Source: Candidatus Poseidoniaceae archaeon (GTDB lineage Archaea; Thermoplasmatota; Poseidoniia; Poseidoniales; Poseidoniaceae). Taken from it: a DNA stretch of 64,000 nt. Shown piece after piece: positions 6,401-49,303 of this stretch. A program made the position numbers and the translations under genes. The stretch spans positions 3,632-67,631 of the forward strand of contig CAXPMI010000009.1 of the NCBI GenBank assembly GCA_964218365.1, written 5' to 3'. Under the pieces are notes generated by a model. It ran no database searches. It saw only the letters and a program-made list of their open reading frames with translations, and was not told the origin of the DNA. Each line of letters begins with the position of its first letter. The first letter of the stretch is position 1.

Positions 6401-6614
6401 TCACAGCACAGTTGTTGACGACCCTTGTGAAGTCAACCCTGACAGTGAAGAATGTGCTGCTATTGGCGGTACCGGTGACAGCGCAGACAGCGGTGAAGTC
6501 CCAACTTGGACATGGGGAGTAATCATCGGTCTAGTTGTGGTCGCATTTGTAGTCGGAGCTTTCATCCTCTCCCGTGGCGGAGATGGTGACGACGGCAAGG
6601 ATTGGGATTACTGA
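3435..6614 (+). CDS. Secreted, C-terminally membrane-anchored acidic surface protein (Ig/FN3-like repeats)
   Basis: GGAGG at 3428-3432 precedes ATGs at 3435 and 3441. There is a Sec-type signal 'MSKLTPIILAAIMLASTSLVALDWA'. The body is D/E/T-rich and beta-rich, with FN3-like segments near the C-terminus. The terminal TM is 'WTWGVIIGLVVVAFVVGAFIL' with a short charged tail. Confidence 0.7.
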   Translation: MTMSKLTPIILAAIMLASTSLVALDWAELEEKKMTEADGRTGADASVEILSPRQTTVDLNGEKTHTLDAGEETEFELYVKNIGDVDIEEMGISLTIYLDENGARGPIAKDLAGNDLHWTNGDVVCDDTFVCPWSTLAANETLNNGKYTYAYQGSTVTWAPTTGDYQVVVSLDALGDVDVGNDEWVTKVSVVDWTDIIVDLSWDSGKETEGGSEPKAFTLAVSTGGSTSWSARSVVLEMTVEGTLSEAQSGGMDIMGTNDVTDIGVGGDTRVFQHQEDDTNFTNDTRYVIDFEDTAEWYGSVTPDASGGSGDYSISVVVKSYVVYGQLPDCEETVAANTTGNNSDPNATEEDITYLHFCEVTFYADADAATSEDLLEGTIATFHDIGVSTLVINQGYVVDENDQPINMPTMPGMVEGPLNPAWSSIQASVRHLGSDLTVTYDWEVTFDVENTVTGITSTLTADSCTFGTGFEYVHAELGDDMGQGGAFPSGEACVMYNFAPGIYTITATVAMVNGEVGQEDQSARNDDMSIYEISALNNRPSVSLTVQEEEFSIVMSPDSTITLEADAFDADDDTGESLSYVWTHPGMDAINGTVQPSPCNGFGLAFATCVLTPFNTDWAGVNSYSVEVFDEHGSSDMDFMNIFVWNQVIATATTASGVTMDYNLTYDGANEFTVTLVDSDAEYTQDLTEFGYAGEYTTVAVMDYTPSTTYLPEDVYEQEIIMTYDASTLSPTGVFWVSTNGAWAQLDAYIEAAGSSGTITIDMGEGNQVLSQGEIVLMGGELQVIEIPNAHPMDLTVVAQKGGTIAASWSYMGNTVPGTDWLEMEICDSAMVCTTTMENTTLVAHSMSGQTDTTHGETYTYTLKVCNIGGCNPTIATGSATADKMVDGSPTATGMSVGPAAAGNAWTVKWDASGDTSDVAGWKVCYADYSWDSSGSMPTTDCVDAGSATTVDINHPAGTGTKTYYFAAVAYDDKNNMENALPGTDIRLTHSTVVDDPCEVNPDSEECAAIGGTGDSADSGEVPTWTWGVIIGLVVVAFVVGAFILSRGGDGDDGKDWDY

Positions 6615-6660
6615 TCCTTAGTTTGCAAGAACCAAGCATACGGTGTCAACCACCGAGGCT

Positions 6661-6692
6661 GCCATGAGGGGCGGTTCGCCGCTCCTCATGGC
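6661..6692 (+). terminator. 14-bp stem hairpin with UUCG loop followed by a pyrimidine/T-rich tract
   Basis: GCCATGAGGGGCGG-TTCG-CCGCTCCTCATGGC (one G:U pair) lies 47 nt after the stop of 3435..6614. It is followed by tccccttctttctcttattctc. Confidence 0.45.
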
Positions 6693-7223
6693 TCCCCTTC
6701 TTTCTCTTATTCTCAATCACTGCAACTACTAGATTCGGTGAGAACCAGGTTTCGCTGCTGAAGATTCTAACTCTGCCAAGTTTATCCTCTAAAATCTCAT
6801 CAATTCAATCTAGAATCGTACGGAGAGAAATACTAATTTTTGGCGAATTTTAATACGGTGTAATTTGTAAACTGAATTGGACTTCCACAATCTTCGAAAT
6901 TATGCAATTTTTTGTTATTATTTTGTGGAAAAAATAATTGTAAATCTATATTCAATTACTATGTTGATTTATTGGGGTGGTTGGAATACAATATTGGAAT
7001 GCAATTCAGTGGCCTTTCTAGAGTTATTGTGTAAAGATAAATCGATGAACTGAGTTTGATAATTTCCTCGTGGGATTTTTGAAATTGAAGGTTCTGTTAA
7101 TCGCAAAAATTGTGACATTATTTCAGTTGATTCCAGTATTCTGTAAAAGGACATGTACCCCAATGCTCATAAGGGATACAATACCTGAGGTGCTCTGCAT
7201 ACAGTCCGTAAGGAGATGATGAC

Positions 7224-7346: not shown

Positions 7347-10300
7347 CAGGTAGAAGCCGAACTTGCAGTAGCAAACGAGGAAAGCGAAGATGTCTTCGCT
7401 CTACCAGAGGTCTATGAGCCTGTAAATTATGAATACGATGAAACCTCGGAACTCGAGGGAATGAGGACAATGAACCAGAAGGCTTTCCGCACTGATGACG
7501 GAAAGACCGCTCTGATCACTGCCGCAGAACCATTGCACTACATCAGTGACGTTGGTTCTTGGGAGGAGATTGACCTCAACATCAAGGCAACCGTCGATGG
7601 TTGGGAAGTAACTGAAAGCCTCTACAAGGTTTCTTTTGCTGCTGAATCAGAAAACGGTGTCTCGGTAATTGTCCACGATAACGTGGACCCGATTGTAACT
7701 GGTATTAACCCTACAGTTGTTACAATCGACCAATCCGGGACAATGCTGAAACCTCATCAAACCGCACCTTCATTGAACGAAGTTACAGTCGGTGGAAACG
7801 TCCTGCGATATCCTATCGCTGAAGGATTCGACCTAGACTACACCGTAACAGAAGTTCAGTTGAAGCAGAACTTGGTCGTAAGAGACCGCCCAATTCTGCA
7901 AGAAGATGCTGCCTACTTTGGTGTTACTGAAGAAATGCGCCTGCCAATCGGTTACGGACTATTCCTTGGAGACGACCTACTAGGCGAGGAGATAACCCAG
8001 ACTCAAGAGGAACTGACAATCAGGAACCTTGAGACTGGAGAGGTCCTTGCAATGGTTCCAGCTCCTGTAGTATTTGGTCCAGAAGGTGAAGAGCCTTACC
8101 ACGCTACATTCTTCGTACAGTCCTTTGGTCCAATTGTTGTACTAACAACAGCAGTTGATACCGATTGGCTGATGGAGGAAGATCGCCAGTTCCCATTGGC
8201 AATCGACCCTTCACTGAAGGTAATGCAAACCGGTGGTGGCGACTGTTATTCCTACTACGGATGGTGTTACAACAGCGCATATGGTGACCTGTACAGAAAC
8301 AGCTACAGGATTTACTACATGCCATGGTACAAGTACACATTCGGTGCCAACAACGCTCTACCAACTGGAGCAACTGTTGACCAAATCGATTGGAAGATGT
8401 ACATCAGGTATGGATACTCTTACTCCAGCAACAAGATTACTGCAACAGTCCTAGAGAACTGTGGTACTGCTGGCAGATACATCAACGTGCCAGCAACTGC
8501 AACATGTTCTGGTGCAATCACTCCTTCTCTTCTGTCTGGTTCAGGAACCAGCACTAACGAGAGAAAGTTGGTAAGTTCACTATGGAACTCTGACAAGGTT
8601 GGAGAGTACACTGTAGGTACTGGTTGGAAGACTGCAAACATCTGTAGCAGTTCTGGAACAACCTGTTCCTCTACCACTGGTAACCACAACTATATCATGA
8701 ACGCTATCAGCAATGGTGGCACAATTGGTATGGGTGCAAAGTATACCACTTCTACTACAATCAGACAATACAGTTACAATACTGGAAGCACAAACAGTTA
8801 CCTGCAGATTACCTACTCAGGTGGTACTGACAGCACTCCTCCAAAGGATGGATTTGTGCCTTACACTGGAATAACCTCTTACAAGGAAGGTGCGAGAACA
8901 TTCTTCACAACCTTGACTGACATAAGCGGTATTGACACCACAAGTTCAGGCGCACCGCACCTGTACTATTCTCTAAACAATGGATCCTACACCGCTGTTA
9001 AGTCAACAACAATCGGATCTTGTGGATCTAGTGATACAGAATGTAAGTTCCGTGCTACAACTGCAACAATTTCAACAGGCGACTATGTCAATTACTTCTG
9101 GGCTTTCAGGGACGCATCAGCGACACCCAACAACGCTACAAGTCCAAGCGGTGGCGATGCTGGTAACCCAAGCAGCGCAACCGCTCCAACTAGCCCGTAC
9201 TGGTTCTTTGTTGACGACGCAGCAAATGCTGGCAACGATATGAAGTTCACAGTCTCAACAACAGACGTTAGAGCTTACACATCAAGTTCTGCCGCTGTAA
9301 ACTTTGACCGCCAGATGACTTACTACGAAGACTCCAAGGAATACGTCTTCGAATATGACACATCTGCATGTGGCACAGGTAGCAACTCCTGTTTCTACAC
9401 CTCCACCTCCACGTTCTATGCTAACTGGAGACTGATGTGGACAACAACACCGTCTTCCGGATACAACGGATATGGTGGAACCACTTCAGGTTCAACACAG
9501 TTGACAACTGGAAACGACGGATATCTAACCATCTCCGCTGACGATGGGCCAGGAATGAACCTAATCTTCCTTTATGACTCTACACTAAACGAGTTTGCAA
9601 TGGTTGGTCTAGGAACTGACACTGGTATCGATGAGCCACTAGGCTCCGGAACAAAGGCTAACCAGAGATCAACCTATGGCTCAACAAAGGCTTTCCTAGT
9701 TGACATCCCAGCGAACATCACTGGTACAATGGGTAAGTTCGACTGGAACTCTGTCTACAGCAGTTCTAGAGCGAATTGGATGTGTGTCGGATCAAACGGA
9801 TTCATGTACTTCTTCCGTTCGACCAGTTCCAATCCAGCATGTAACACAGGTTACTACTACACTTACAGTAGTTACTATCGCTGGTCTGGATTCGCTCTAG
9901 GTACAGGTTACTATGGTGTAATGGCAAGTTCTGGTGAAGTCGTGTACAAGGTTGCAAAGGTTGCACCTGAACCGGACGCAACTGCTCCAGAAGTAGACCA
10001 CAGCCCTCTGCGCGATTCTCATTCTAGAGACCGAACATTCACCTTCGGAATCAAGGATGGTGGAGAGCCTCCAACCGGTATCAACACTACAAAGACTGTA
10101 GGCGTTGGACCAACATTCTACTGGAGAGTTACAGACGCTAACGGAACCGTTGGTTCTTGGAGCAGCAAGTTGCTGACTCCTGAAGGCGGCTCTTCTGGTT
10201 GGACTACCTGTGCAGGAGTCGTATCTTGTGATTGGACAACCACTCTTGAAGACATCGAGCGTGGAGCATCTGTAGAATACTACATCACAGTTAAGGATAC

Positions 10301-37804: not shown

Positions 37805-40345
37805 TCAATCTTCAGCCATTTCTGCTTCTAAGACATCATCGTCGTACTCTTTGTGTGATAGAACTACGCGATTGTTTGACTCTTTGAGGCTGTACCCTAA
37901 TCCGACCAATGCAACTACCAGTATCAGAGATAGGAAGGACATTGCTAGTGGGTATTCTGTGTAAATACCTGTAAGTGATGAAAAGAATCCGTCTTCTCCT
38001 TCCTCTCCACCCGTGTCTTTTGGCTTAATTAATGCCACAACAGCAGCTTGATCGTAGACTAGTCTAGTGAAAGTTAGTTTGCCATCATTATCTGAATCAT
38101 ACACCTCAGAAGGAAGTGCGGGGTCAAGGTCAGAATAGAAATCAGGTCTCTGTTCAAACGCGATGTCAACCGGCTGGCTTAGGTCAAGTGTCAGTAACAC
38201 GTCAACAGTGTATGGAATTCTTGATTCAAAGAATTCAGGGTCCTCAATTACACCGAACAGTGTGATAGCTTGTCCGGTCACATCGAAGTGAGCCCACTTG
38301 CCCCAGTGTGAACTGTCTACATCCAAATCATAGTACCAAGTATCAGCTATTCTGATTCCCTGTCCTTGTCCATCATTTGAGCCGTCTTCTCCCAAATCAA
38401 TTGAAAGTTGGAGTTGACCGGCTTGTGCAGTTTCCAACTCGAATTCAGATGCGGCGAGTGTTGCTTCTAGTCTCTCTGTTCCATTCGGAATAAAGACGTA
38501 GTGAGAATCTTCAGTGTAATATACAGCGCCGTTTGCACCGTTGTTGAAGTGGTTCCAGTCACCCTTCCAGGAGTGCTTAACTCTGTCAGTGTTCACAGGA
38601 ATTGTTGCAGTACCCATCATTTCTTGGTAGATTTCGTAAGCATCCCAAACGTTGTATTCAGGGTGGTCTACAAACCCGTCTCCATTTTGGTCTCTCATGA
38701 GTTGTAGGGTTCTTGCTAGGGCGACAGCAGCGTCGGTATCAGTTAGTCCGTGGCCAACACGCCAGTCGTGACATCCTCCTGTTGCGCTTCTGTAGCACTC
38801 TTCAGGAATGTCTGCACATCCATCTTCGCTGTTTCCATCTTCACAGGAATTTGCCATTCCATCATATCTCGATGTAAGTTCAAGGATTAACTCGAATTCG
38901 TGGACTCGGCTGTAATTTTCACTGTCCCAATTTTCGTACTGTCCATATGCAGCAGTGCCATCTCCTCCAACTAGACTGTCTCCAAAGTCGTGGTCGTCTC
39001 TATGGTAATCTGCAACTCCAAGCGAAGGTGCTGCATTTAGGACCAGCCCTGCGATGCCTCCAACGTGAGGTGTAGCCATCGATGTCCCTGAGATTGCCAT
39101 ATAGTACAAGTCGCCCTGTGTGCGGGTGGATGCATCGATTGCGGTACCTCGTGGAGCAGTAGCCCAAATATCACGGCCGGGCGCACCCACGTCCGGCCAA
39201 GTGTGCTGCTGATTCATACAACCTCTAGACGAGAATGATGTAACTGCAGTTCCGTCGTGAGTAAGTGCTGCAACAGATACAGCTGAAGGAGTGTTTGCGT
39301 AGACATTGGTTCGCAGGTCACCCGAGCACTCTGCTCCAGATCCTCCTGAATTAGATGCAGCAAATATTACCGCAACTCCGTTCTCGTAGGTCAGTTTGTC
39401 AGTTAGTTGGGCGATTACGCCTTGTGGGTTGTAATCTCCGTCGGTTCCCCATGAATTAGAAACAACACGAATGTGGTGCTGATTTTGTCCGGGTATCGAG
39501 TGTGCATATGTCCACTCTAGTCCTTGCTCAGCAGCGAAAATAGAAGCGCCATCACCAGTTCCTAGAGCAACAAGTTGGCCGCCCTTGGCAACACCCGCTC
39601 TGCGTCCACTAGAAGCATCACCGTTTCCTGCGATTGTTCCTCCAACGTGAGTTCCGTGCCCTGACGATGTGTCAGAGTTCCTAGTTTCAGTCCAGCCAAC
39701 ACCATCGAACTTAGCGGAATAAATCGCCTTGTCTCCCGTCCATGGTTCAAGATAGTCATAGTCTGGATGCCCGGCATCAACACCTGTGTCCAAATCCACA
39801 ATTGCGGTTCCGTCACCATCCCACTCAGTGAATGATTGGTCGATTTCGTATTCAACTTCGCCAGTTGGAGAAATGATTGCACGACTCCAAGAGTCGGTAG
39901 CAGTAACAACGTGGGTGGTTTCATGCATCATGATACCTGCATCGGTAGTAGGTTCTCCTCCCCATTCTGATGGCAAGTAGAAAAATTCGAGAGGCTTGTC
40001 AAGTTCAAGGTACTCGATTCTCTCCCAATTCGATAGTTCACGAACTTCTCCAATTGTTCCTTCAACCAATCCACCATCAACCAGTGGTGCCCTTCCAAGC
40101 ACCTCAAATCCTAACTCTATCAGGTGTTTCTCATCACTCTCGGTCATTGGGGAGTTAAGTTGGAATATTACTGGGATCAGTTTTGAGTTGTCGTTATTTT
40201 CCAACTCTTCCAATAGGTCATCATTCATTTTTGTGAGGTCTCCGAGTGGGTTTACACCATCTGCTAGAGGAGAAGCAACTGCGCTAAGCATTAGCAACTG
40301 GATGAAAAGTGCAGACGAAATGATGTAGCGTCTAGACGATGCCAT
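37805..40345 (-). CDS. Secreted, membrane-anchored subtilisin-like serine protease (S8)
   Basis: The signal peptide is 'IISSALFIQLLMLSAVASP'. The catalytic triad motifs are 'VDLDTGVDAGHPDY' (Asp), 'SGHGTHVGGTIAGNG' (His) and 'ISGTSMATPHVGGIAGLVL' (Ser). The C-terminal TM is 'LAMSFLSLILVVALVGLGY'. Confidence 0.85.
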   Translation of the reverse strand: MASSRRYIISSALFIQLLMLSAVASPLADGVNPLGDLTKMNDDLLEELENNDNSKLIPVIFQLNSPMTESDEKHLIELGFEVLGRAPLVDGGLVEGTIGEVRELSNWERIEYLELDKPLEFFYLPSEWGGEPTTDAGIMMHETTHVVTATDSWSRAIISPTGEVEYEIDQSFTEWDGDGTAIVDLDTGVDAGHPDYDYLEPWTGDKAIYSAKFDGVGWTETRNSDTSSGHGTHVGGTIAGNGDASSGRRAGVAKGGQLVALGTGDGASIFAAEQGLEWTYAHSIPGQNQHHIRVVSNSWGTDGDYNPQGVIAQLTDKLTYENGVAVIFAASNSGGSGAECSGDLRTNVYANTPSAVSVAALTHDGTAVTSFSSRGCMNQQHTWPDVGAPGRDIWATAPRGTAIDASTRTQGDLYYMAISGTSMATPHVGGIAGLVLNAAPSLGVADYHRDDHDFGDSLVGGDGTAAYGQYENWDSENYSRVHEFELILELTSRYDGMANSCEDGNSEDGCADIPEECYRSATGGCHDWRVGHGLTDTDAAVALARTLQLMRDQNGDGFVDHPEYNVWDAYEIYQEMMGTATIPVNTDRVKHSWKGDWNHFNNGANGAVYYTEDSHYVFIPNGTERLEATLAASEFELETAQAGQLQLSIDLGEDGSNDGQGQGIRIADTWYYDLDVDSSHWGKWAHFDVTGQAITLFGVIEDPEFFESRIPYTVDVLLTLDLSQPVDIAFEQRPDFYSDLDPALPSEVYDSDNDGKLTFTRLVYDQAAVVALIKPKDTGGEEGEDGFFSSLTGIYTEYPLAMSFLSLILVVALVGLGYSLKESNNRVVLSHKEYDDDVLEAEMAED

Positions 40346-40469
40346 TGTTGTAATTTCACTGCACGATTCTTATAACAATACTGATATTTTGCACTCAATG
40401 TATCTTACCGATGCCACGAGTGGTGTCGACTTCTGATGCTATCTGCATTGTTAATTGCAGCCTAGGTAA

Positions 40470-42512
40470 TCATATTCCATGAAGGTCCTTTGATTTGTTA
40501 TGGCTCCAATGATAAGCTAATTTCAGTATTTCAAGATAGTGTCCCTGACCGTCCTTGATCAACTTCTCATGAAGTGGTTCGTTGTTCATTAGGACATCTC
40601 CCCAAACATTTGCAGAGGTACCCTTCTTGCCCTTTGGCAGGTCGAAAACCTCCTTGGTTGTGGGCTCTAGTAGGTTCTTCCAGACAACGGCAGGGTTCAC
40701 TGCCATTGTAACTTCGACAATGATTTCATCTTCGTTCAGTCCAGTTCCTGTTTGCCAAGAATCTTCTCCCATATCTGCAAGGAATGGTAGGCACAGGTCA
40801 CTAATTGATAGTCCAGTCATTGGGTCCGCTCCAGTCATGTTTGCGAAAGCCTCTCTCATTCGTCCTCTGTCAGCACCTCTTGCTCCTGTTATGGAGCGGA
40901 GCTTGTCTATTGAGGTAGGTACTAGGAACCTGATGTCTGTGTAGTAAACGAGCGCTTGGTCGCTTCCTCCTTCCTTTGGTGCGAAGATGTGTGAGAACGG
41001 CTGAACACCGCCTGATTCTCCTAGCATATCAAGTGGGAATAGCGTCTTCAGAGCGTTTGTTGCAACAGATTGAACAACACGTCGTATCAGCCTCTCCGGT
41101 GCAGCAGAAACATCGTTGAAAGTTTCCATATACTCGTCAAGATTCAATACATCATATCCACGTACAGCAAGGATTGAGTGGACATTTGGTCCAAGTTTCT
41201 TGTTGTCTCCAACCTGCGCTTGGCTAATCCATCGAGCACCCTTGGCTTGGTCACTTGCGGTAATCAAGTCAGCATATGCCTTGTATCTGCGAGTAACTCT
41301 ATTCATGAAATCAGCTTGGTCAAGTTTTGTGAATACCGTGGCTGCATAGTTTGACTTTAGTGCATGGTCAGCAACTTGGCTTGCGTTAACACAGGTCAAG
41401 AGATTTCCTTGGTCTTGTGGGTAAACCAGTAATCTGCGTCTCTTTGATGCTCCTCCCAAAGTTCCGATGTTAGGGTCGGTTAGTAAGTAACCAAAGGTTC
41501 CAGTAACTTCGAACAATCTTGAATACTTGTCTTCATCTGTTGCGTTCTTAATCCACTCATCCAATCCAGGTTCAATACAGTGGAATTCTAGAGGCACCAT
41601 CTCTGAACCAGCGCCGAACATTTGGCGAACGGTGGATGATGACATCATGCCCATCATTGTGTAGAGAGATGTTTTTCCTGTGGTCAAATAAACGTCAGTG
41701 ATTCCTTCTTCGCCGAATGAAATACGGCGGTCTGGTAGATTGACTAGCAGATTGAATGCGGTTGCAGTGTCTCTGTTTCCATCCACTGCAGGAGTGATCC
41801 AAGTAGTTGGCTTTGTCATAATGTAACCACTAGCGTCCTTTCCAAATCCTGCTGGTGAGTATCTAATCCAGCCAAATCGGTTGTTGAATGCGACATTTCT
41901 GTGCATAAGAGATGGGTAGTATACCTTGTCTTGTGGGTCGGAGTCCGGAACAACTCCTCTGTGGCCAAGTCCCCACAGGATTGGCTCCCACTCGGCGTCT
42001 CCATCTTCATATCCACCAGTTCCTAGCAATGGGTGGTTGTTAGACAGGGTTTCTCCAGTAAGGAAAGAGCCTCCGAGTCTGTCTTCATCTCCGGTTGAAC
42101 AGAAAAAGAAAGTCTGTGTTGTAACCAATTGCTTAGGAGTCCACATGTTAGCATTAACTACGGTCTTCTGCTTCAAGAAGTCAGAAATTGTGCTGATTCT
42201 TCTTTCGAATTTGAATCTCTCTGACTCAATCCAAGTTGATCCCAATACCAGGTTAGTGTTGAGCAACTTAGGAACTCCTGGGCCAATATATCGTGTCCTC
42301 GGGTCTTCCTTGGTATTATCAGTTGCATGCACCATTTCCCATGGTCCCTCACGAGGTACATAATTCAAGAATTCCTCGTGGTTAAATGGCATCTTCGATG
42401 CTTCTTTGACTGCGTCTTCGACTTTGTCCATTAGTTGGACATATGTCTCTGATGGTGAAACTCTGCCACTTTCTTCAAACTGCTTTTGCGATACTGCTCT
42501 ATGTTCCCACAT
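40470..42512 (-). CDS. Hypothetical 680-aa soluble protein (no recognisable family)
   Basis: The ORF is long and clean, with ordinary globular composition and no TM or signal peptide. It starts 12 nt downstream of the EF-hand gene. No catalytic or nucleotide-binding motif was recognised. Confidence 0.6.
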   Translation of the reverse strand: MWEHRAVSQKQFEESGRVSPSETYVQLMDKVEDAVKEASKMPFNHEEFLNYVPREGPWEMVHATDNTKEDPRTRYIGPGVPKLLNTNLVLGSTWIESERFKFERRISTISDFLKQKTVVNANMWTPKQLVTTQTFFFCSTGDEDRLGGSFLTGETLSNNHPLLGTGGYEDGDAEWEPILWGLGHRGVVPDSDPQDKVYYPSLMHRNVAFNNRFGWIRYSPAGFGKDASGYIMTKPTTWITPAVDGNRDTATAFNLLVNLPDRRISFGEEGITDVYLTTGKTSLYTMMGMMSSSTVRQMFGAGSEMVPLEFHCIEPGLDEWIKNATDEDKYSRLFEVTGTFGYLLTDPNIGTLGGASKRRRLLVYPQDQGNLLTCVNASQVADHALKSNYAATVFTKLDQADFMNRVTRRYKAYADLITASDQAKGARWISQAQVGDNKKLGPNVHSILAVRGYDVLNLDEYMETFNDVSAAPERLIRRVVQSVATNALKTLFPLDMLGESGGVQPFSHIFAPKEGGSDQALVYYTDIRFLVPTSIDKLRSITGARGADRGRMREAFANMTGADPMTGLSISDLCLPFLADMGEDSWQTGTGLNEDEIIVEVTMAVNPAVVWKNLLEPTTKEVFDLPKGKKGTSANVWGDVLMNNEPLHEKLIKDGQGHYLEILKLAYHWSHNKSKDLHGI

Positions 42513-42524
42513 TTTATTTTCACC

Positions 42525-43679
42525 TCAGAATTTCTTCTTTTTCTTTGGAGTTTCTTTCACAACTTCTTCAGTTGTTTCTTCGCCATCAGACTCGTCTTCT
42601 GAATCTTCCGCTTCTTCAACGGCTTCATCTGATTCAGACTCGTCAGATGCATCTTCGTTATCATTTGATTCCTCGTCTGACTCTTCAACTTCTGTTTCTT
42701 CTTCAGTTGTTTCTTCATCAGCAGCCTCTTCAGTTTCTTCAACTTCTTCGGAACCTTCTTCCTCGGATTCAGTTGCAGGTTCTTCCTCTGCTTCGTCTCC
42801 GGTTGATTCTTCATCAGCAGCCTCATCCGTATCTTCCTCAGAGTCGTCTTCTACAGATTCTTCATCTTCGGATGTCTCAGTCTCTATGTTTGTCTCCACA
42901 GATTCTTCGTCACTTTCTGTTGTATTATCGGTTGATTCTGGAGCCTCTTCAACAGTTTCTTCTTCGGTTACCGAGTCTTCTGTTGCTTCCTCTGAATCCT
43001 CAGCAGCTTCTTCCTCTGTCTTCTCTTCTTCTACATATGGAATGAATTCTATACCGAGAGCATTTCTGATGTTTAGTAGTGCGATGTCTAATTCAGGAAG
43101 GTTGATTCTGCCGTCTGAGTTAATGTCCATGAGTTTGACTAATTCCTCAATTTCCCACGGTGGCAGGTTTGCAATTTCAGCAGCACGTAGCGCGTTTGCG
43201 AATTCCACCATGTCGATAGAACCAGAGTTGTCTACATCTGCCCACTCAAAGAATTGGACAGTTGTAGTTCCTCTGCTGCAAAGCCATTTTGTCAACTTGA
43301 CCAGGTCTTCATCAAATACAGGTCCACGCTCTGGTTCTTGTTCTTCTTCTCCTCTTGGGATTAGACTTTGGATTACAAGCCCGAGAGTTCCAAGCACAGC
43401 ACCAAGGCCGATAATCACTCCATTGTTTGTCCTTTGTGTGTCATTCGGGTCGATGTTGGTAGCCATGCCTGTTTCCGGCGGTATTGCGATGCCCGCTACG
43501 TTAGAAATAGCTTCAATTCCTACCCAAGCTGCAAAGATAATCATGATGATTGAAACAGTGTTTGCTGTCTTCACATCTTTGTTAATCCAGTCGATAAGGG
43601 GTGAACTAGCACCTTGCATGCTTGCGCGTTGCAATCTTAGCATATAATTAGTATCCCTTTTTTTATGGGGTACTAGCAT
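42525..43679 (-). CDS. Two-TM membrane protein with a canonical EF-hand pair and a ~250-aa polyacidic C-terminal tail
   Basis: The N-terminus is basic. The two TM helices are 'VSIIMIIFAAWVGIEAI' and 'VIIGLGAVLGTLGLVIQSLI'. The EF loops are 'DVDNSGSIDMVE' and 'DINSDGRINLPE'. An E/D/T/S-rich tail follows and ends in 'KKKKKF'. The start is uncertain (43679, 43715 or 43745). Confidence 0.7.
   Translation of the reverse strand: MLVPHKKRDTNYMLRLQRASMQGASSPLIDWINKDVKTANTVSIIMIIFAAWVGIEAISNVAGIAIPPETGMATNIDPNDTQRTNNGVIIGLGAVLGTLGLVIQSLIPRGEEEQEPERGPVFDEDLVKLTKWLCSRGTTTVQFFEWADVDNSGSIDMVEFANALRAAEIANLPPWEIEELVKLMDINSDGRINLPELDIALLNIRNALGIEFIPYVEEEKTEEEAAEDSEEATEDSVTEEETVEEAPESTDNTTESDEESVETNIETETSEDEESVEDDSEEDTDEAADEESTGDEAEEEPATESEEEGSEEVEETEEAADEETTEEETEVEESDEESNDNEDASDESESDEAVEEAEDSEDESDGEETTEEVVKETPKKKKKF
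43092..43238 (-). other. EF-hand pair (two 12-residue Ca-binding loops)
   Basis: Loop 1 is at 43203-43238 (D-V-D-N-S-G-S-I-D-M-V-E). Loop 2 is at 43092-43127 (D-I-N-S-D-G-R-I-N-L-P-E). Both satisfy the canonical pattern D-x-[DN]-x-[DS]-G-x-I-x-x-x-E. Confidence 0.75.
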
Positions 43680-43692
43680 CAATTTTCGGGCT

Positions 43693-46410
43693 TCATTCCT
43701 GAATCCATTCTTCATCCTTTGGTGATAGAACAAAGTGTACTGCAATCAAGGATATACCTAAGATGTATAACAGCGGTGCAACGTAGTCGAATGGAGTGTC
43801 GAAGTTAGTCCACCATGTCATGTACTCCTGGTTGTGAACTATTGCATCTTCCATCTCCTCAGCATCGTCATCTTCGATTTCAGAAGCGCTAACGATTTGG
43901 AATACAGGCTGCAAGTCTTCCATGGTAGGAGTAGTTGCAAGGTCGATTCCAGTTCTTGTATCCAAGTAGAATGTCGATGTTGAAGATCCTGCGATAATCA
44001 GTCCCGAAACATCCTCTGACATCAGAGAGATTTCGCTTCCGAAGTAGACAGGAAGTGCAGGAGTTGTGGCATCAAGTAGCGTGAAACTCTTGACCAACTT
44101 AGCAGTTATTGGATTAGTTGTAGGGTCTACAGACGCTGAACAATCATCGACTAGTATTCCTTTTACATCATCCTTGCCATCGCAAACAACTTCAGCGATT
44201 GCATAACCGCCTGCGTTTACCATGTCTCCTTCACCGGTAAGGAATCCACCGGTTGTGCCGTTTAGAGTTTCAACTGTAACGAGTCCGAAGGTAGCATTCA
44301 TCATGTCCATATTTCGCCAAGACAACTCGTTTGAACCATCTTCTGAGACAGCTTCACCCTTCTCACAATCTGGGTTGTGGCCTGTGCACATTACGTAAAC
44401 ACTAGCGTTTCCGGTAGAGATTCCGCCAGAGCCATAGTATGTTTCATTGGTCTCAAGTTTTGACCATCCTAATTCTGGGTTAGAAACATCTCCTGCAGCG
44501 AAAGCGCTTACAGGATCTCTCCAACCATAGAGCCAGTTGTTCAATGGCATGGTCATGTATTGTCCACTGCTTCCAAATGTTCCAATTAGGAACTCAGGGA
44601 CGAAGTCACCGTAAATCGCTTCCATCATTAGTGCACGCATTGCTGCTGCAGCGTTTTCATCAACACCGTAAATCATTGCAACAGTGGAAGTGTTCCACTC
44701 CATTGCAGGTCCGGGTGCCATTGTTGCCAAGTTAAGAGGAGGGGTCATACCTGTAAGTTCACCGTACAGGAATAGGGTGGCGCCAGTCGAACCAGTCAAA
44801 CCTAGTGGTCCGTATAGGATATTTCCAGATTGTTCTGCAGTAAGGTCAACCGCGGGTGAACCGGGAGCGAATACTGCAGACCATGCTCCGCCCATGTTGA
44901 GGCTGTTTGCTAGGTATCCTCCGTTAACAGGGTCTTCTGCACCAAATGAGACGTTGACGAATTGCTCCGCTGTCATTGTTCCAGAGCTGCCTAGAAGGGC
45001 CATGTTTAGAGAGGATGTGCTTGTCATCCATCCGCCAGCCCAGGTTGCAATTGCGCCGTACTGGGAGGCGTCAAGGCTGTAAGTTGCCATTGCTGTTGCT
45101 GCATCCATTGATGCGAATGCTGCAAGTCCGAATGCAGTACTATCTGCATTTGTTGCTAGCAATCCTGTTGGCATGTCAGTGTTTGCTCCACCAAATAGTA
45201 GTCCTGTAGCAACTGCGTTATCGATGTCAACGCCTAATAGGTTCATCAAGCGAGTTGATGCATTGACGTTTCCATCGATGTACCATGTGTCATCGCCGCC
45301 GCCGTGAAGTTCAGCGAATTGGCCAGCGACTCCAAAACATAGAGCCCAGTCTCTAGCGATTGTTGCATTGATGTCTGGAGTAGTTTCATCCATCATTGCT
45401 GTGAATCCCCAAACGGATGCTCGTTGCATTGTTCCAACGTTTGCAAATCCATTTGCTGCATCTGCCATTACTTCATCGTAAGTTGCTGTAGGGAATGCAT
45501 CACAGTGGCCTGCTAGTAGTAGGACACCCTGCATTGATGTTAGGGATGCATCATCTCCTGTAATCCATGTAGCGGATTCGAATGCATATGTCAGGTTGCC
45601 AATCGATGCGTTTCCAGTGAAGGTGATTCCGGATGGATCTCCTCCTGCTAGAGCCATTTGTTGTCCTTGGATTGCTTGGGTGTAGGTAACCATTACACCG
45701 GCGGAATCATTGTTCATCATCGAACCGTTGATAGAAGCGAAGTACATGTCGAACTGGTCGTACATTCCAACTCCGATCATCATTGAAGCAGTTGCTGCAT
45801 CAACAGCAACACCGTCAGTCATCGCACCTGCTTGTATAGCCTGGTACTGCATGTCCAGGTCTTCAGCAGTCTTCTTTGCTGCAGAGAAGGATTCTAGCTC
45901 GATGCCCATTACACCTGCAGCGAACCCAACCTTGGTTAGGTCCATGATTCCGCTAATTGCAGTTCCAGTTGCTCCAACTACTTGCGGTTGGAATGGAATG
46001 TTAAGTTGTGTAATCTCAGTGTTACAGTCATTTTCTGTGTCTTCAGCACAGGTAAATACCTTGGATTCGGTGTAAGTCAAAGTACCAGCGTCCTTGTCAA
46101 AATCAACGATTTCACGAGTGTAAGTAATGTCATAATTGAACGGACCGAGTTTCTCGTATACGGCCGCTTCTCCAGCCATCACTTCATCAACGTTGGTAAG
46201 GTTCCATGCGTAGTATGTTCTTTCTGACGTTGATGTTGCCCAGTCTTCCTCAGCTTCAGTACAGTCTGCATTTGCACATGCAGAGTCGTAAGGATAAGTT
46301 TCGAACTCCTCCTCGACTGCTACTTCTACCATGCTTGTTGCAATTGGTGATAGTAGTACCAAGTTCAACAATACCATGACTGCTCCGGCTATTAATTTCT
46401 GATTACCCAT
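43693..46410 (-). CDS. CD36/LIMP-2/SR-B-family-like membrane protein (N- and C-terminal TM, ~850-aa ectodomain with large Ala/Gly/Met-rich insertion)
   Basis: The N-terminal TM 'MGNQKLIAGAVMVLLNLVLL' resembles CD36 'CGLIAGAVIGAVLAV'. 'YYAWNLTNVDEVMAGEAAVYEKLGPFNYDITYTREIVDFDKDAGTLTYTESKVF' resembles CD36 'FWIFDVQNPQEVM....VKQRGPYTYRVRF...NVTQDAEDNTVSF'. 'LNNWLYGWRDPV' resembles 'RELLWGYRDPF'. 'PVYFGSEISLMSEDVSGL...TFYLDTRTGIDL' resembles '[23 protein letters not shown]...TYLDIEPITGFTL'. The C-terminal TM is 'VAPLLYILGISLIAVHFVL'. Confidence 0.6.
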   Translation of the reverse strand: MGNQKLIAGAVMVLLNLVLLSPIATSMVEVAVEEEFETYPYDSACANADCTEAEEDWATSTSERTYYAWNLTNVDEVMAGEAAVYEKLGPFNYDITYTREIVDFDKDAGTLTYTESKVFTCAEDTENDCNTEITQLNIPFQPQVVGATGTAISGIMDLTKVGFAAGVMGIELESFSAAKKTAEDLDMQYQAIQAGAMTDGVAVDAATASMMIGVGMYDQFDMYFASINGSMMNNDSAGVMVTYTQAIQGQQMALAGGDPSGITFTGNASIGNLTYAFESATWITGDDASLTSMQGVLLLAGHCDAFPTATYDEVMADAANGFANVGTMQRASVWGFTAMMDETTPDINATIARDWALCFGVAGQFAELHGGGDDTWYIDGNVNASTRLMNLLGVDIDNAVATGLLFGGANTDMPTGLLATNADSTAFGLAAFASMDAATAMATYSLDASQYGAIATWAGGWMTSTSSLNMALLGSSGTMTAEQFVNVSFGAEDPVNGGYLANSLNMGGAWSAVFAPGSPAVDLTAEQSGNILYGPLGLTGSTGATLFLYGELTGMTPPLNLATMAPGPAMEWNTSTVAMIYGVDENAAAAMRALMMEAIYGDFVPEFLIGTFGSSGQYMTMPLNNWLYGWRDPVSAFAAGDVSNPELGWSKLETNETYYGSGGISTGNASVYVMCTGHNPDCEKGEAVSEDGSNELSWRNMDMMNATFGLVTVETLNGTTGGFLTGEGDMVNAGGYAIAEVVCDGKDDVKGILVDDCSASVDPTTNPITAKLVKSFTLLDATTPALPVYFGSEISLMSEDVSGLIIAGSSTSTFYLDTRTGIDLATTPTMEDLQPVFQIVSASEIEDDDAEEMEDAIVHNQEYMTWWTNFDTPFDYVAPLLYILGISLIAVHFVLSPKDEEWIQE

Positions 46411-46594
46411 AGGTGTTCCCCAAGTAACTTGGGTGTACCTTTACTACTTAATGTAAAGGGCGGATTTTTTGCCGACTTAGGCCAATTTTCGCTTCTAATC
46501 CTGGTGCCAAAACAATCACTGAATCAGATTTTCAGATGGTACTAATTCTGCGCTCTTAGTGTAAAATTCGGATTATCTGGATGGGGAAAAAGGA

Positions 46595-46670
46595 TGGTGG
46601 ACGCTGTGGGATTTGAACCCACGGCCGCTTGGTTGCAAACCAAGCGCTCTTCCAGCTGAGCTAAGCGCCC
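46595..46670 (-). tRNA. tRNA-Ala (anticodon UGC), G3:U70, 3' CCA encoded
   Basis: The reverse complement is GGGCGCTTAGCTCAGCTGGAAGAGCGCTTGGTTTGCAACCAAG..GTGGGTTCAAATCCCACAGCGTCCACCA. The anticodon stem-loop is CTTGG-TTTGCAA-CCAAG. The G3:U70 alanine identity pair is present. Confidence 0.9.
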
Positions 46671-46707
46671 CTGTATCCGACCGGGTAGGCTTCTCCCTTT
46701 TGAGGAT

Positions 46708-47994
46708 TCACACGCGGTCAACTGTAGCATCACGGTCTGGGCCTAGTCCAACAGAAGAGATTGGAACACCTAAAATCGATTCTAATTTTTTGATGTAATT
46801 CTGGGCAGCTGCAGGCAATCCAGTGAATCCGATTCCTTCTGAATTGCACTTTCTTGCGATTCCTAGCCACTCTTCTAGGGAATGCGATGGGAAACCAGGA
46901 ACGGTGACGTAGACTGGTTCACAATTTTCTAGGGCAATAGCGCTTGCAGGCATCTCATTGACTTCCGTATCTCCCATTTTGTATCCAACACAGATGTTGA
47001 TCTCATCCAAACCGCCAAGAACGTCCAATTTTGTTAACGCTATCTCAGTGAATCCATTGACTCTGGTGGAATGTCTCATGACAACTGCATCAAACCAGCC
47101 ACACCTGCGCCTTCTGCCGGTTGTGGTTCCGAATTCGTGTCCCACACTGGTAAGGTGCTCTCCGACTTCATCATAGAGTTCAGTGGGCATGTGTCCGTTC
47201 CCCACACGTGTGATGTACGCTTTCGTAATACCAATCACGTTGTCTACGTGACCAGGATGAATTCCAGCACCGTGAGTTGCGTTTCCTCTTGATGTTACGG
47301 AGGATGTCACGAATGGGAATGTTCCTTGGTCGATATCGAGTAGGCAGCCTTGTGCACCTTCTAGTATGATTCTCTCACCCATTTTTAGGGCATTGTCTAG
47401 AAGGATTCCAGTATCTGTAATGGCATTGCCAAATCTTTCCTTTATCCAAGTGATTTGCTCTTCTAATTCATTAGCAGTGACTCTCTGTCTGCATCCGGCA
47501 TTCTCTAGCGCCTTATTTTGCCGCTCAGCCATCTCATTGAAATCACAATAAGGCAGGTCTGCGAACCGCAGCCCAATTCGGTTGATCTTGTCCGCATAGG
47601 TAGGACCAATCCCACGACCTGTGGTTCCAATTTTCTTGTCTAGGCCATCGATGTAGGTGTGATATGGAAGTATTATGTGTGCACGGCTTGAAATAAAGAG
47701 TCTCTTTCCTGAGGGGTCTGTTCCTCCTCCTTCAACCCAATCGTTCAATTCCTTGTCTAATACCCACGGGTCGATTACCATTCCATCCCCTAGGATTAAT
47801 CCACACTCTTCACGTGTAATTCCAGATGGCAGCAAATGGAATTTGAGCACCCTGTCGCCAAGAACTACAGTGTGGCCTGCGTTATTTCCTCCTTGGAATC
47901 TCGCCACCCAGGTGGCACTTTCAGCCAATCGATCGACTAGTTTCCCTTTACCTTCGTCTCCCCATTGGGCACCGAGTACAACTGTGGCTGGCAT
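46708..47994 (-). CDS. purA: Adenylosuccinate synthetase
   Basis: Motifs seen are 'VVLGAQWGDEGKGKLVD', 'GGNNAGHTV', 'GTTGRGIGPTYADK' and 'TTGRRRRCGWFD'. Confidence 0.92.
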   Translation of the reverse strand: MPATVVLGAQWGDEGKGKLVDRLAESATWVARFQGGNNAGHTVVLGDRVLKFHLLPSGITREECGLILGDGMVIDPWVLDKELNDWVEGGGTDPSGKRLFISSRAHIILPYHTYIDGLDKKIGTTGRGIGPTYADKINRIGLRFADLPYCDFNEMAERQNKALENAGCRQRVTANELEEQITWIKERFGNAITDTGILLDNALKMGERIILEGAQGCLLDIDQGTFPFVTSSVTSRGNATHGAGIHPGHVDNVIGITKAYITRVGNGHMPTELYDEVGEHLTSVGHEFGTTTGRRRRCGWFDAVVMRHSTRVNGFTEIALTKLDVLGGLDEINICVGYKMGDTEVNEMPASAIALENCEPVYVTVPGFPSHSLEEWLGIARKCNSEGIGFTGLPAAAQNYIKKLESILGVPISSVGLGPDRDATVDRV

Positions 47995-48246: not shown

Positions 48247-48283
48247 CCTAGTGCCCTCACTAAACAACTCGGAGTTGAGAAGT

Positions 48284-49303
48284 ATGGCGTATGATGACGA
48301 AGCATGGACAGAAGCACGAACAAAAAACAATGCACAGAGAGACAATGTTGCCCGTAAGGGATTGGGCTCAACAAGGCCGCAGCGAAGAGTTGTCGACGGA
48401 CATACCAAGCCTTGCATAGAGTGTGGAGTTCTGGACTGGTCTGTGGATAACAGTAGAGGCGAGATTTCTTGCGGTGGTTGCGGATTAGTGGTAGAAGAAA
48501 ATGTCATTGACCCTGGTATCGACTGGACTAACCACGACAATACTACCGACCGTTCTAGAATTGGCGCTCCAGTAACTCATACTCTCGCAGACAAAGGATT
48601 GAACACGAGTATCGCGAGTTCAGATTTGACTTCTGGAGCTGCAAGCCGCCACGGTATGTCTGCCAAAGCACGCCGTGATTGGAGACGCCGCAGGGTCATG
48701 GACGAGCGTTCCAAAACTCGTGCAAGCCGTGCTCGTAATCTAGTTAAGGCGAATCAAATGGTTAGAGACAAATCTGGACTTCCTAAATCCATGCAGGAAG
48801 AAGTATGCAGATTGTACAGGATTCTGTCCCATCAGGGATTCGTTACTGGTCGCTCAATCGCAGGAGTTACTGCTGCTTGTACATACTTGGTGGCTAGGAA
48901 AGAAGGCGTACCTCGACAAATTGCAGAGATTTGTGAAACATTCCAAGTCGATGAAAAAGAACTGTCTAGGATGATTCGACATATTTCAAGAAAGTTCAAC
49001 ATGCACAAGATTTCCTGTCCATCTGACTACTTTGGCAGATTCATTAGTGACCTCAAGCTTCCACCAAAGACTTCATTGGAAGTTGACGCTTTGTGGGAAG
49101 CTATGAAGCCCCACGTTGATATTTGGCAGGGTAAGAAACCGATGGGTGTTGCTGCAGCAATTATCTACAAGGCGGCTACAAAAGCCGGGCACAAGAGAAC
49201 TCAAGCAGATATATGCAAGGTTGCTAACGTTTCAGAAGTCACACTGCGTCAAATCAATCGTGCGATTGACAATCTGTTATCTATGTTAGATAGCAACATC
49301 TGA
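48284..49303 (+). CDS. tfb: Transcription initiation factor IIB (TFB)
   Basis: The Zn ribbon is 'CIECGVLDWSVDNSRGEISCGGCGLVVEE'. The B-linker and two cyclin-fold repeats are present ('GRSIAGVTAACTYLVARKEGVPR', 'GKKPMGVAAAIIYKAATKAGHKRTQADI'). ATG 48284 follows GGAG at 48271. Confidence 0.9.
   Translation: MAYDDEAWTEARTKNNAQRDNVARKGLGSTRPQRRVVDGHTKPCIECGVLDWSVDNSRGEISCGGCGLVVEENVIDPGIDWTNHDNTTDRSRIGAPVTHTLADKGLNTSIASSDLTSGAASRHGMSAKARRDWRRRRVMDERSKTRASRARNLVKANQMVRDKSGLPKSMQEEVCRLYRILSHQGFVTGRSIAGVTAACTYLVARKEGVPRQIAEICETFQVDEKELSRMIRHISRKFNMHKISCPSDYFGRFISDLKLPPKTSLEVDALWEAMKPHVDIWQGKKPMGVAAAIIYKAATKAGHKRTQADICKVANVSEVTLRQINRAIDNLLSMLDSNI

Follow-up and report, generated by a model that had tools for sequence, protein, structure and literature searches.

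A CD36-family protein with a helical apex domain in Poseidoniales (Marine Group II) archaea

The CD36 or class B scavenger receptor (SR-B) family has a central part in the lipid uptake, innate immunity, and chemosensation of animals; a gene resembling its members is examined here on an archaeal contig. The window examined is a stretch of 64,000 nucleotides (nt) of contig CAXPMI010000009.1 (assembly GCA_964218365.1, Candidatus Poseidoniaceae archaeon), and the gene in question is an uninterrupted open reading frame (ORF; 43693..46410(-)) that encodes a protein of 905 amino acids (aa). An initial annotation, made by reading the window itself, had proposed for this product a CD36-like topology, the motif blocks of the family in the correct order, and a large insertion at the apex. 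The analysis reported here indicates that the protein is almost certainly a genuine member of the CD36 / SR-B family, and its gene is shown to belong to the chromosome of a Marine Group II (Poseidoniales) archaeon. The best explanation as a whole, in which a Poseidoniales-resident family member also works as a lipid conduit, is considered moderately probable. An order-wide archaeal clade bears on the origin of the eukaryotic lipid scavenger receptors and on how Marine Group II archaea, a still uncultured group that ranks among the most abundant surface-ocean heterotrophs, acquire lipids and fatty acids.

Membership of the CD36 family

The proposed topology, with one transmembrane (TM) helix at each end, short tails, and a large ectodomain, was borne out by the ORF and by a Kyte-Doolittle scan, which located two hydrophobic segments only (aa ~5-30 and ~875-897). 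Cytoplasmic tails of ~5 and 8-10 aa are predicted, and the ectodomain of ~845 aa between the segments contains 118 Asp+Glu compared to 23 Lys+Arg. All of the motif strings named by the initial annotation were present and in order: LIAGAV within TM1 (aa 6-11), YYAWNLTNVDEVM...KLGPFNYDITY...DAGTLTYTESKVF (aa 66-119), LNNWLYGWRDPV (aa 623-634), and PVYFGSEISLMSEDVSGL...TFYLDTRTGIDL (aa 787-824). Residues W626, L627, G629, W630, and D632 of the WLYGWRDPV motif are invariant in a diverse alignment of the family, as are P787 and Y789.

The Pfam profile for CD36 (PF01130) matched the window protein at 53.4 bits (E 2e-14), well above the gathering score of 26.5. This match spans aa 55-150 only, corresponding to profile positions 41-134 of 463, and a sequence search of the PDB with the single protein retrieved LIMP-2 only, over the same N-terminal stretch. 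Neither the central region nor the C-terminal third of the window protein matched Pfam at E <= 10 when scanned alone, and divergent relatives were therefore brought in; a scan of NCBIfam yielded nothing relevant. The claimed CD36 similarity thus stood for the window protein by itself over the N-terminal ~95 aa, while the C-terminal half needed the relatives, a profile with the insertion deleted, and a structure model.

A search of 5.8 billion proteins yielded 615 homologues in 90% clusters. The 120 homologues listed are ~810-930 aa long (nearly all ~900), are 67-94% identical, and lie on contigs of up to 1.5 Mb, with PF01130 matched in all 120. A profile search of 1.84 billion representatives clustered at 50% identity yielded 287 clusters, including ~15 full-length members at 30-54% identity. 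PF01130 was matched by ten of ten divergent members tested, many of them in two stretches, and it exceeded the gathering score in all 25 diverse relatives (best E 1.3e-19). Furthermore, when the segments following the insertion were searched alone, those of three relatives passed the PF01130 cutoff: P0127 (35.6 bits, profile positions 154-247), P0133 (32.5 bits, positions 161-252), and P0130 (27.2 bits, positions 151-237). Because these segments pass independently, the WL(F/Y)GWxDP block is judged from sequence profiles to be truly homologous to the LLWGYxDP block of CD36. A profile of diverse archaeal members (A2) matched LIMP-2 in the PDB at E 1.3e-6 and human CD36 (5LGD) at E 0.006, with a weak second stretch in which nnWLfGWrDpv was aligned to DELLWGYKDEI of LIMP-2. 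A profile of the post-insertion region only, run against the whole PDB, returned seven sequences at E <= 10, all seven of which were LIMP-2 (best E 0.015), matched in two colinear pieces.

Profile-profile alignment with hhalign was performed against a eukaryotic profile of ten real database sequences, all mammalian (six CD36 and four SCARB1). Human CD36, SCARB2, and SCARB1 sequences served solely as the query in retrieving them; the real CD36 orthologues are 81-92% identical to the CD36 query over 100% of its length, and the checkable stretches of LIMP-2 agree with the PDB alignments. The archaeal N-terminal block aligned to the mammalian profile at 95.6% (E 1.3e-8; reversed control 0.83) and aa 585-700 aligned at E 4.4e-4 (reversed control 0.64). 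On its own, aa 700-872 was not significant (0.095 compared to 0.15 for the reversed control), and the insertion alone yielded nothing against CD36 (0.16; reversed control 0.74). With the insertion deleted (aa 1-146 joined to 585-905), the local alignment reached 97.4% and E 1e-11 over 372 columns (reversed control 0.24), running from query position 7-426 to CD36 14-442, i.e. from TM1 to just before TM2. The global alignment reached E 4.8e-19 (reversed control 0.044). All four motif pairings drawn by the initial annotation were reproduced. For its blocks 3 and 4, the insertion-deleted alignment paired NNWLYGWRDPV with ELLWGYKDPF, TFYLDTR with RTYLDIEPITG, and ALPVYFG and QPVFQI...EIEDDDAEEM with their CD36 segments.

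Chance or convergent similarity of motifs without common ancestry could appeal to the ~95 aa of the Pfam profile matched by the window protein alone and to a C-terminal third that by itself has no Pfam match, and it is left with a negligible probability by the end-to-end colinear alignment, the relatives' post-insertion segments independently above the Pfam cutoff, and fold-search matches specific to CD36 and LIMP-2 (below).

Comparison to the eukaryotic members CD36, SCARB1 (SR-BI), SCARB2 (LIMP-2), and the insect SNMPs revealed the same plan of two TM helices with very short tails and ectodomains that are colinear from TM1 to TM2. Common motifs include xNxTNxxEV, GP(F/Y)xY, (L/W)L(W/Y)G(Y/W)xDP, PVYxxxxxx, xYLDxxxxTG, and P(V/I)xx(L/I) followed by an acidic helix before TM2. 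Apart from its archaeal host, the protein differs from the known family in a ~440-aa helical insert at the apex, next to an alpha5-like helix, in tails lacking Cys for palmitoylation, and in an extremely acidic ectodomain with few Lys and Arg residues. All 25 diverse members have a polar Asn halfway along TM1 (Asn16, codon 46363-46365); since this residue is invariant and TM1 aligns to TM1 of CD36, the sequences argue for a retained functional TM helix rather than a cleaved signal peptide. The ectodomain carries 13 N-x-S/T sequons, of which N70-L-T (46195-46203, within WNLTN) is invariant and aligns with the N-V-T sequon of LIMP-2 (FFNVTNPEE), a site that we take to be N-glycosylated. Given this alignment, a glycosylation site may be common to the archaeal protein and LIMP-2 across domains.

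Predicted fold and the apex insertion

The final AlphaFold (AF2) model was built on an alignment of 25 diverse sequences and reached a predicted local distance difference test (pLDDT) score of 82.5 and a predicted template-modeling score (pTM) of 0.70. It superseded an earlier model built on 30 close homologues (pLDDT 55), in which the barrel was unresolved and for which the fold search still placed LIMP-2/CD36 first, at E ~0.01 only. The final model contains, in order, the TM1 helix, four long strands (59-71, 85-105, 110-121, and 132-136), ~20 helices (140-612), a helix carrying WLYGWRDP, and a C-terminal part with strands between 670 and 844, a helix at 847-863, and TM2. Two of the C-terminal strands (788-799 and 804-817) cover the PVYFGSEISL...TFYLDTR region.

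The structure search with Foldseek proposed by the initial annotation supported its reading, with LIMP-2 or CD36 entries of the PDB holding ranks 1-13 (E 8.5e-7 to 1.2e-3, probability 1.00). The next matches were the mycobacterial LmcA (E 0.02), then LppX and LprG (E > 1). The LIMP-2/CD36 alignments comprise 298-359 columns, gaps included; because this number cannot span the 440-aa insertion and exceeds the length of the N-terminal block, we infer that they mainly represent the post-insertion barrel of the model. Among known structures, the predicted asymmetric barrel matches LIMP-2 and CD36 best. The modeled ectodomain is thus shown as a predicted CD36-type beta-barrel formed by aa ~55-146 and ~585-870, plus a helical apex domain.

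The insertion, which had been estimated at ~450 aa rich in Ala, Gly, Met, and Thr, is 438 aa long and maps between Pfam profile positions ~134 and ~151, in agreement with the proposed location at the CD36 apex. Relative to a background of nine neighboring proteins, Ala, Gly, and Met are elevated (Ala 15.8% compared to 8.1%, Gly 12.6% to 9.0%, Met 6.6% to 2.5%), and Lys+Arg is 1.4% compared to 9.3%. The Met content of the insertion is 5-7% in the Marine Group IIa (MGIIa) clade and 3-4% in Marine Group IIb (MGIIb). In the model the insertion is all-helical, with pLDDT mostly 85-94. An alpha5-like helix is kept directly before WLYGWRDP, where it is aligned to FLREIIEAMLKAYQQ of LIMP-2, and the remainder of the apex is either exchanged for, or enlarged into, the ~440-aa domain of ~20 helices. 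This domain is shown to sit at the membrane-distal apex, where CD36, SR-BI, and LIMP-2 carry the ligand-binding helix bundle. Alignment of the two halves of the insertion with hhalign detected no internal repeat (0.18).

All 25 aligned members carry the insertion, with lengths of 355-458 aa, and its conservation (majority fraction) is 0.57 compared to 0.62-0.64 for the barrel. Among relatives, size variants of ~150, ~260, and >500 aa also occur. For example, P0128 is a complete protein of 619 aa with two TM helices and an insert of ~150 aa, P0141 is 730 aa long and is found on contigs of up to 1.86 Mb, and P0477 reaches 1054 aa. Such natural variants on the same barrel could help dissect the role of the apex in ligand choice. 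A similar pattern is known among protists. The main evolutionary survey of the SR-B family, covering 165 eukaryotic proteomes (Boohar et al. 2023, PMC10715195), defines the family operationally as an ectodomain flanked by two TM helices and reports non-metazoan (protist) ectodomains of 413-2,294 aa, with all major length variation at the membrane-distal apex. The archaeal family, with helical inserts of ~150 to >500 aa, varies in size at the same site.

Table 1. Features of the CD36-family gene and its immediate surroundings in the window
Feature	Positions	Strand	Basis
CD36-family (SR-B-type) gene, 905 aa	43693..46410	-	ORF and PF01130 match
TM1, aa ~5-30, containing LIAGAV and invariant Asn16	46321..46398	-	hydropathy; model helix 2-35; hhalign extends through CD36 TM1
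N-terminal CD36 barrel block, aa 55-146 (WNLTN..EV, GPFxY, long beta-strands)	45973..46248	-	Pfam positions 41-134
Apex insertion, aa 147-584, all-alpha, ~20 helices, Ala/Gly/Met-rich	44659..45972	-	model, alignment
Post-insertion CD36 barrel, aa 585-870	43801..44658	-	PF01130 matches of relatives, hhalign, Foldseek
WLYGWRDPV motif, aa 626-634, counterpart of CD36/LIMP-2 LLWGY(R/K)DP	44509..44535	-	alignment to LIMP-2 and CD36
PVYFGSEISL...TFYLDTR strands, aa 787-819, counterpart including CD36 RTYLDIEPITG	43954..44052	-	hhalign pairing
TM2, aa ~875-897, followed by short acidic tail	43720..43788	-	hydropathy; model helix 873-895
Candidate archaeal TATA-like element TTTACATTAA, ~40 nt upstream of ATG	46448..46457	-	by eye
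EF-hand, acidic-tailed membrane protein directly downstream	42525..43715	-	EF-hand_7 match

Archaeal residence, distribution, and origin

The flanking genes cited as archaeal context by the initial annotation were all confirmed. A tRNA-Ala (46595-46670), purA (adenylosuccinate synthetase, 46708-47994), and a TFIIB-type TFB gene (48251-49303) flank the CD36-like gene, and the surroundings also encode a tRNA-Val, LonB, a GatD-like asparaginase, and an archaeal type-IV prepilin peptidase. The guanine-cytosine (GC) content is uniform across the window, and that of the CD36-like gene resembles its surroundings. Fifty-one loci from GTDB species representatives carry the gene, all in Poseidoniales-type contexts. 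Divergent clusters are named Candidatus Thalassarchaeum and Thalassarchaeaceae, and members are found in both Poseidoniaceae and Thalassarchaeaceae. The family thus extends over both MGIIa and MGIIb, and it probably dates back to the ancestor of the order Poseidoniales. Among the 150 matches listed from 1.8 billion representatives, every source that names an organism is archaeal, and no relatives were found in viral contigs.

Contamination by a eukaryote or a chimeric assembly, i.e. a protist gene mis-assembled into an archaeal contig, would be in keeping with a family otherwise known from eukaryotes, and it is excluded as vanishingly improbable by the uninterrupted ORF with GC like its surroundings and archaeal genes on both sides, the same locus on independent contigs of 0.6 and 1.1 Mb, conserved archaeal synteny in metagenome-assembled genomes (MAGs) of Poseidoniales across the 51 loci, and the archaeal origin of every organism-named source among the 150 matches listed. 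The same-lineage genome check suggested at the outset thus placed the gene on long archaeal contigs. Three of the 51 loci are labelled as bacterial MAGs (L007, L017, and L019; Rhodobiaceae, Yoonia, and Salipiger). Two of these, L007 and L019, show the full Poseidoniales synteny of the type A arrangement described below, and because this synteny is clearly archaeal they are probably mis-binned archaeal DNA.

The initial annotation had regarded the CD36 family as eukaryotic. This view is upheld in so far as the survey of eukaryotic proteomes (PMC10715195) makes no mention of archaea or prokaryotes. It is qualified by existing database labels, NCBI having named three of the archaeal proteins (P0080, P0081, and P0303) "CD36 family protein", and by bacteria, in which the CD36-like fold is already known from the actinobacterial DUF3068/PorA (PF11271) proteins LmcA and PgfA (MSMEG_0317, Rv0227c). 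A literature search for CD36 or SR-B proteins in Poseidoniales, Thermoplasmatota, Euryarchaeota, and archaea found no paper discussing these proteins. The Poseidoniales proteins are apparently the first prokaryotic member clade of the CD36 family and apparently an undiscussed one, a novelty that is tempered by the database labels.

The actinobacterial proteins differ from the archaeal family in several respects. LmcA and PgfA have a predicted cleaved signal peptide and a single C-terminal TM helix, whereas archaeal TM1 aligns to TM1 of CD36; they lack an apex helix bundle; and they are restricted to actinobacteria, whereas the hosts of the archaeal family are Poseidoniales. No archaeal member matched PF11271 above its cutoff of 29.5 bits, the best scores being 17.6 bits (a P0133 fragment) and 17.0 bits (P0141). 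One of the 25 diverse members had any match and the window protein had none, and LmcA was not retrieved from the PDB by the archaeal profiles. The two weak matches (E 0.003-0.01, ~17 bits) fall at aa ~681-806 of P0133 and aa 567-692 of P0141, corresponding to aa ~700-830 of the window protein, and may represent a remote sequence bridge between the archaeal family and DUF3068.

Two origins can be envisaged. In the more conservative one, the gene was transferred in ancient times from a marine protist into a Poseidoniales ancestor. In the other, CD36/SR-B would have arisen outside the eukaryotes: two prokaryotic branches of an ancient superfamily of membrane-anchored lipid conduits would survive in the Poseidoniales proteins and the DUF3068 barrels, and eukaryotes would have inherited theirs from a prokaryote. 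We regard the latter as rather doubtful. If true, the archaeal family would connect, at the level of sequence, two groups for which fold has so far been the only link.

Possible function and gene neighborhood

The gene is found in four arrangements (types A-D). In type A, a fatty-acid desaturase, MscS, and PheRS-alpha lie upstream and bitopic acidic membrane proteins lie downstream; the desaturase is four genes upstream of the CD36-like gene (11 loci; L002, 925-2100). In type B, the CD36-like gene is followed by a GT4 glycosyltransferase, a membrane protein, and a FadB-type fusion of 3-hydroxyacyl-CoA dehydrogenase and enoyl-CoA hydratase, of which the last is placed two genes downstream (15 loci; L015, 5148-7265). 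The FadB-type and desaturase neighbors suggest a link of the CD36-like gene to lipids, but loci that share an arrangement do not count as independent observations. Type C comprises three loci (L035, L050, and L051). Type D is the arrangement of this window, repeated on the independent 0.6- and 1.1-Mb contigs in the order TFB, purA, an extra 964-aa TIG/TSP_3 gene, the CD36-like gene, an EF-hand protein, a 680-aa protein, and an S8 peptidase; on these contigs the CD36-like and EF-hand genes overlap by 23 nt. None of the window's own neighbors is shared with the 51 related loci.

To our knowledge, genomics predicts the consumption of lipids and fatty acids by Poseidoniales, and no uptake system has been named for them. 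By analogy with the eukaryotic family, a lipid-uptake conduit formed by the helical apex and the barrel is put forward tentatively, with confidence just under an even chance. Hydrophobic ligands or lipid-bearing particles would be captured outside the cell by the apex, with free fatty acids, lipids of phytoplankton debris, and membrane vesicles as candidates. Within the barrel, an internal cavity would then carry the lipid to the outer membrane leaflet, and the delivered lipid could feed the fatty-acid degradation pathway encoded by all Poseidoniales genera. Palmitate has been described in the cavity of CD36, and the phylogenomic study of Poseidoniales reports fatty-acid degradation genes in all genera and predicts mixed membrane lipids, with CD36 not mentioned. 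Weak support for a conduit function is also provided by the structural neighbors ranking after CD36 and LIMP-2 (LmcA, LppX, and LprG), all of which are lipid-binding barrels, by lipid genes nearby in two of the four arrangements, and by the predicted lipid-degrading lifestyle.

Several observations weigh against a lipid-conducting CD36 family member as the overall explanation. The template-modeling scores of the Foldseek matches are modest (0.38-0.41, normalized to target) and were reported with no query range, and the last ~170 aa are not significant by sequence alone (P ~0.07-0.1). The insertion is without a relative in Pfam, in the hhalign comparison to CD36, or in the fold search of the PDB, and the apex could bind a protein, by analogy with LIMP-2 and glucocerebrosidase. 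The gene occurs in four different neighborhoods, and context therefore gives weak functional clues only; in the window itself no lipid genes adjoin it, the neighbors encoding Ca-binding surface proteins and a subtilase. Furthermore, the disulfide-forming Cys and the PHF motif of metazoan members are absent from the archaeal protein, whose ten ectodomain Cys form five different, near-neighbor pairs (45/50, 121/129, 303/358, 675/682, and 743/757). The disulfides of CD36 are C243-C311, C272-C333, and C313-C322. None of these Cys was aligned with an archaeal Cys by hhalign. As the disulfide pattern is restricted to Metazoa by a section heading of the survey, it is not taken to be family-defining.

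Two other functions were weighed against uptake and are about equally improbable. In the first, the same fold would perform the opposite task, moving endogenous lipids or envelope components outward to the cell surface or S-layer. LmcA, the best structural neighbor outside CD36/LIMP-2 (E 0.02), and PgfA have a proposed role in the trafficking of lipoglycan and trehalose monomycolate, with PgfA acting in periplasmic lipid trafficking. Outward movement would also fit the weak PF11271 matches of two archaeal members, the GT4 glycosyltransferase directly downstream in type B, and the unusual mixed membrane lipids predicted for Poseidoniales. However, LmcA is a much more distant match to the archaeal protein than the uptake and receptor proteins of eukaryotes are (Foldseek E 2e-2 compared to 8.5e-7), and the cutoff is passed for PF01130 but not for PF11271. 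In addition, we know of no outer lipid layer in these archaea.

In the second, the protein would be an adhesin or receptor in which the helical apex binds a protein, a particle, a phytoplankton surface, or a virus, and the barrel serves as a stalk that conducts no lipid. Binding as the main task would be consistent with known protein ligands of the CD36-family apex, since the matched PDB entries include PfEMP1 on CD36 (5LGD) and glucocerebrosidase on LIMP-2 (9FJF). It would also be consistent with an apex that varies in size more than any other part of the family, and with the location of the window gene among co-directional genes for exported Ca-binding surface proteins and a protease. However, conservation of the barrel equals or exceeds that of the apex, which is hard to explain for a passive stalk, and all characterized family members known to us also handle lipids.

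Downstream of the CD36-like gene lies what looks like a cluster of genes for cell-surface proteins or exoproteins. The product of the EF-hand gene (42525-43715(-)) is a membrane protein in which an EF-hand pair is combined with a very long tail rich in Glu, Asp, Ser, and Thr. The start of this gene either overlaps the stop codon of the CD36-like gene or falls 14 nt after it, and on account of this arrangement the two genes are probably co-transcribed. A Ser-rich ORF of 413 aa on the opposite strand (42406-43647(+)) is an antisense shadow of the acidic tail. Further downstream, window positions 37805-42512(-) carry two co-directional genes, one for a 680-aa protein that matched nothing in Pfam and one for an S8 subtilase of 846 aa; the cluster is conserved in relatives, with a counterpart at 10955-15666 of L052/L053. 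Large TIG/TSP_3 (Ca-binding repeat) proteins also flank the gene in relatives. In L052/L053, which are close relatives (85% identity), an extra 964-aa TIG/TSP_3 gene (3974-6868) lies between purA and the CD36-like gene, and the corresponding interval of the window (46411-46707) contains the tRNA-Ala only.

In type A, genes for one or two small membrane proteins (~270 and ~228 aa), bitopic, acidic, and lacking Pfam matches, come after the CD36-like gene; they are located at 8813-9619 and 9675-10361 of L002 and occur in 24 other loci. These may be partner proteins, akin in position and character to the EF-hand protein of the window. In a few MAGs the CD36-like gene is split into two adjacent ORFs (L026 and L036; also NCBI PXY70973/PXY70974, i.e. 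P0288/P0287), which could reflect a sequencing-error frameshift or a real pseudogene.

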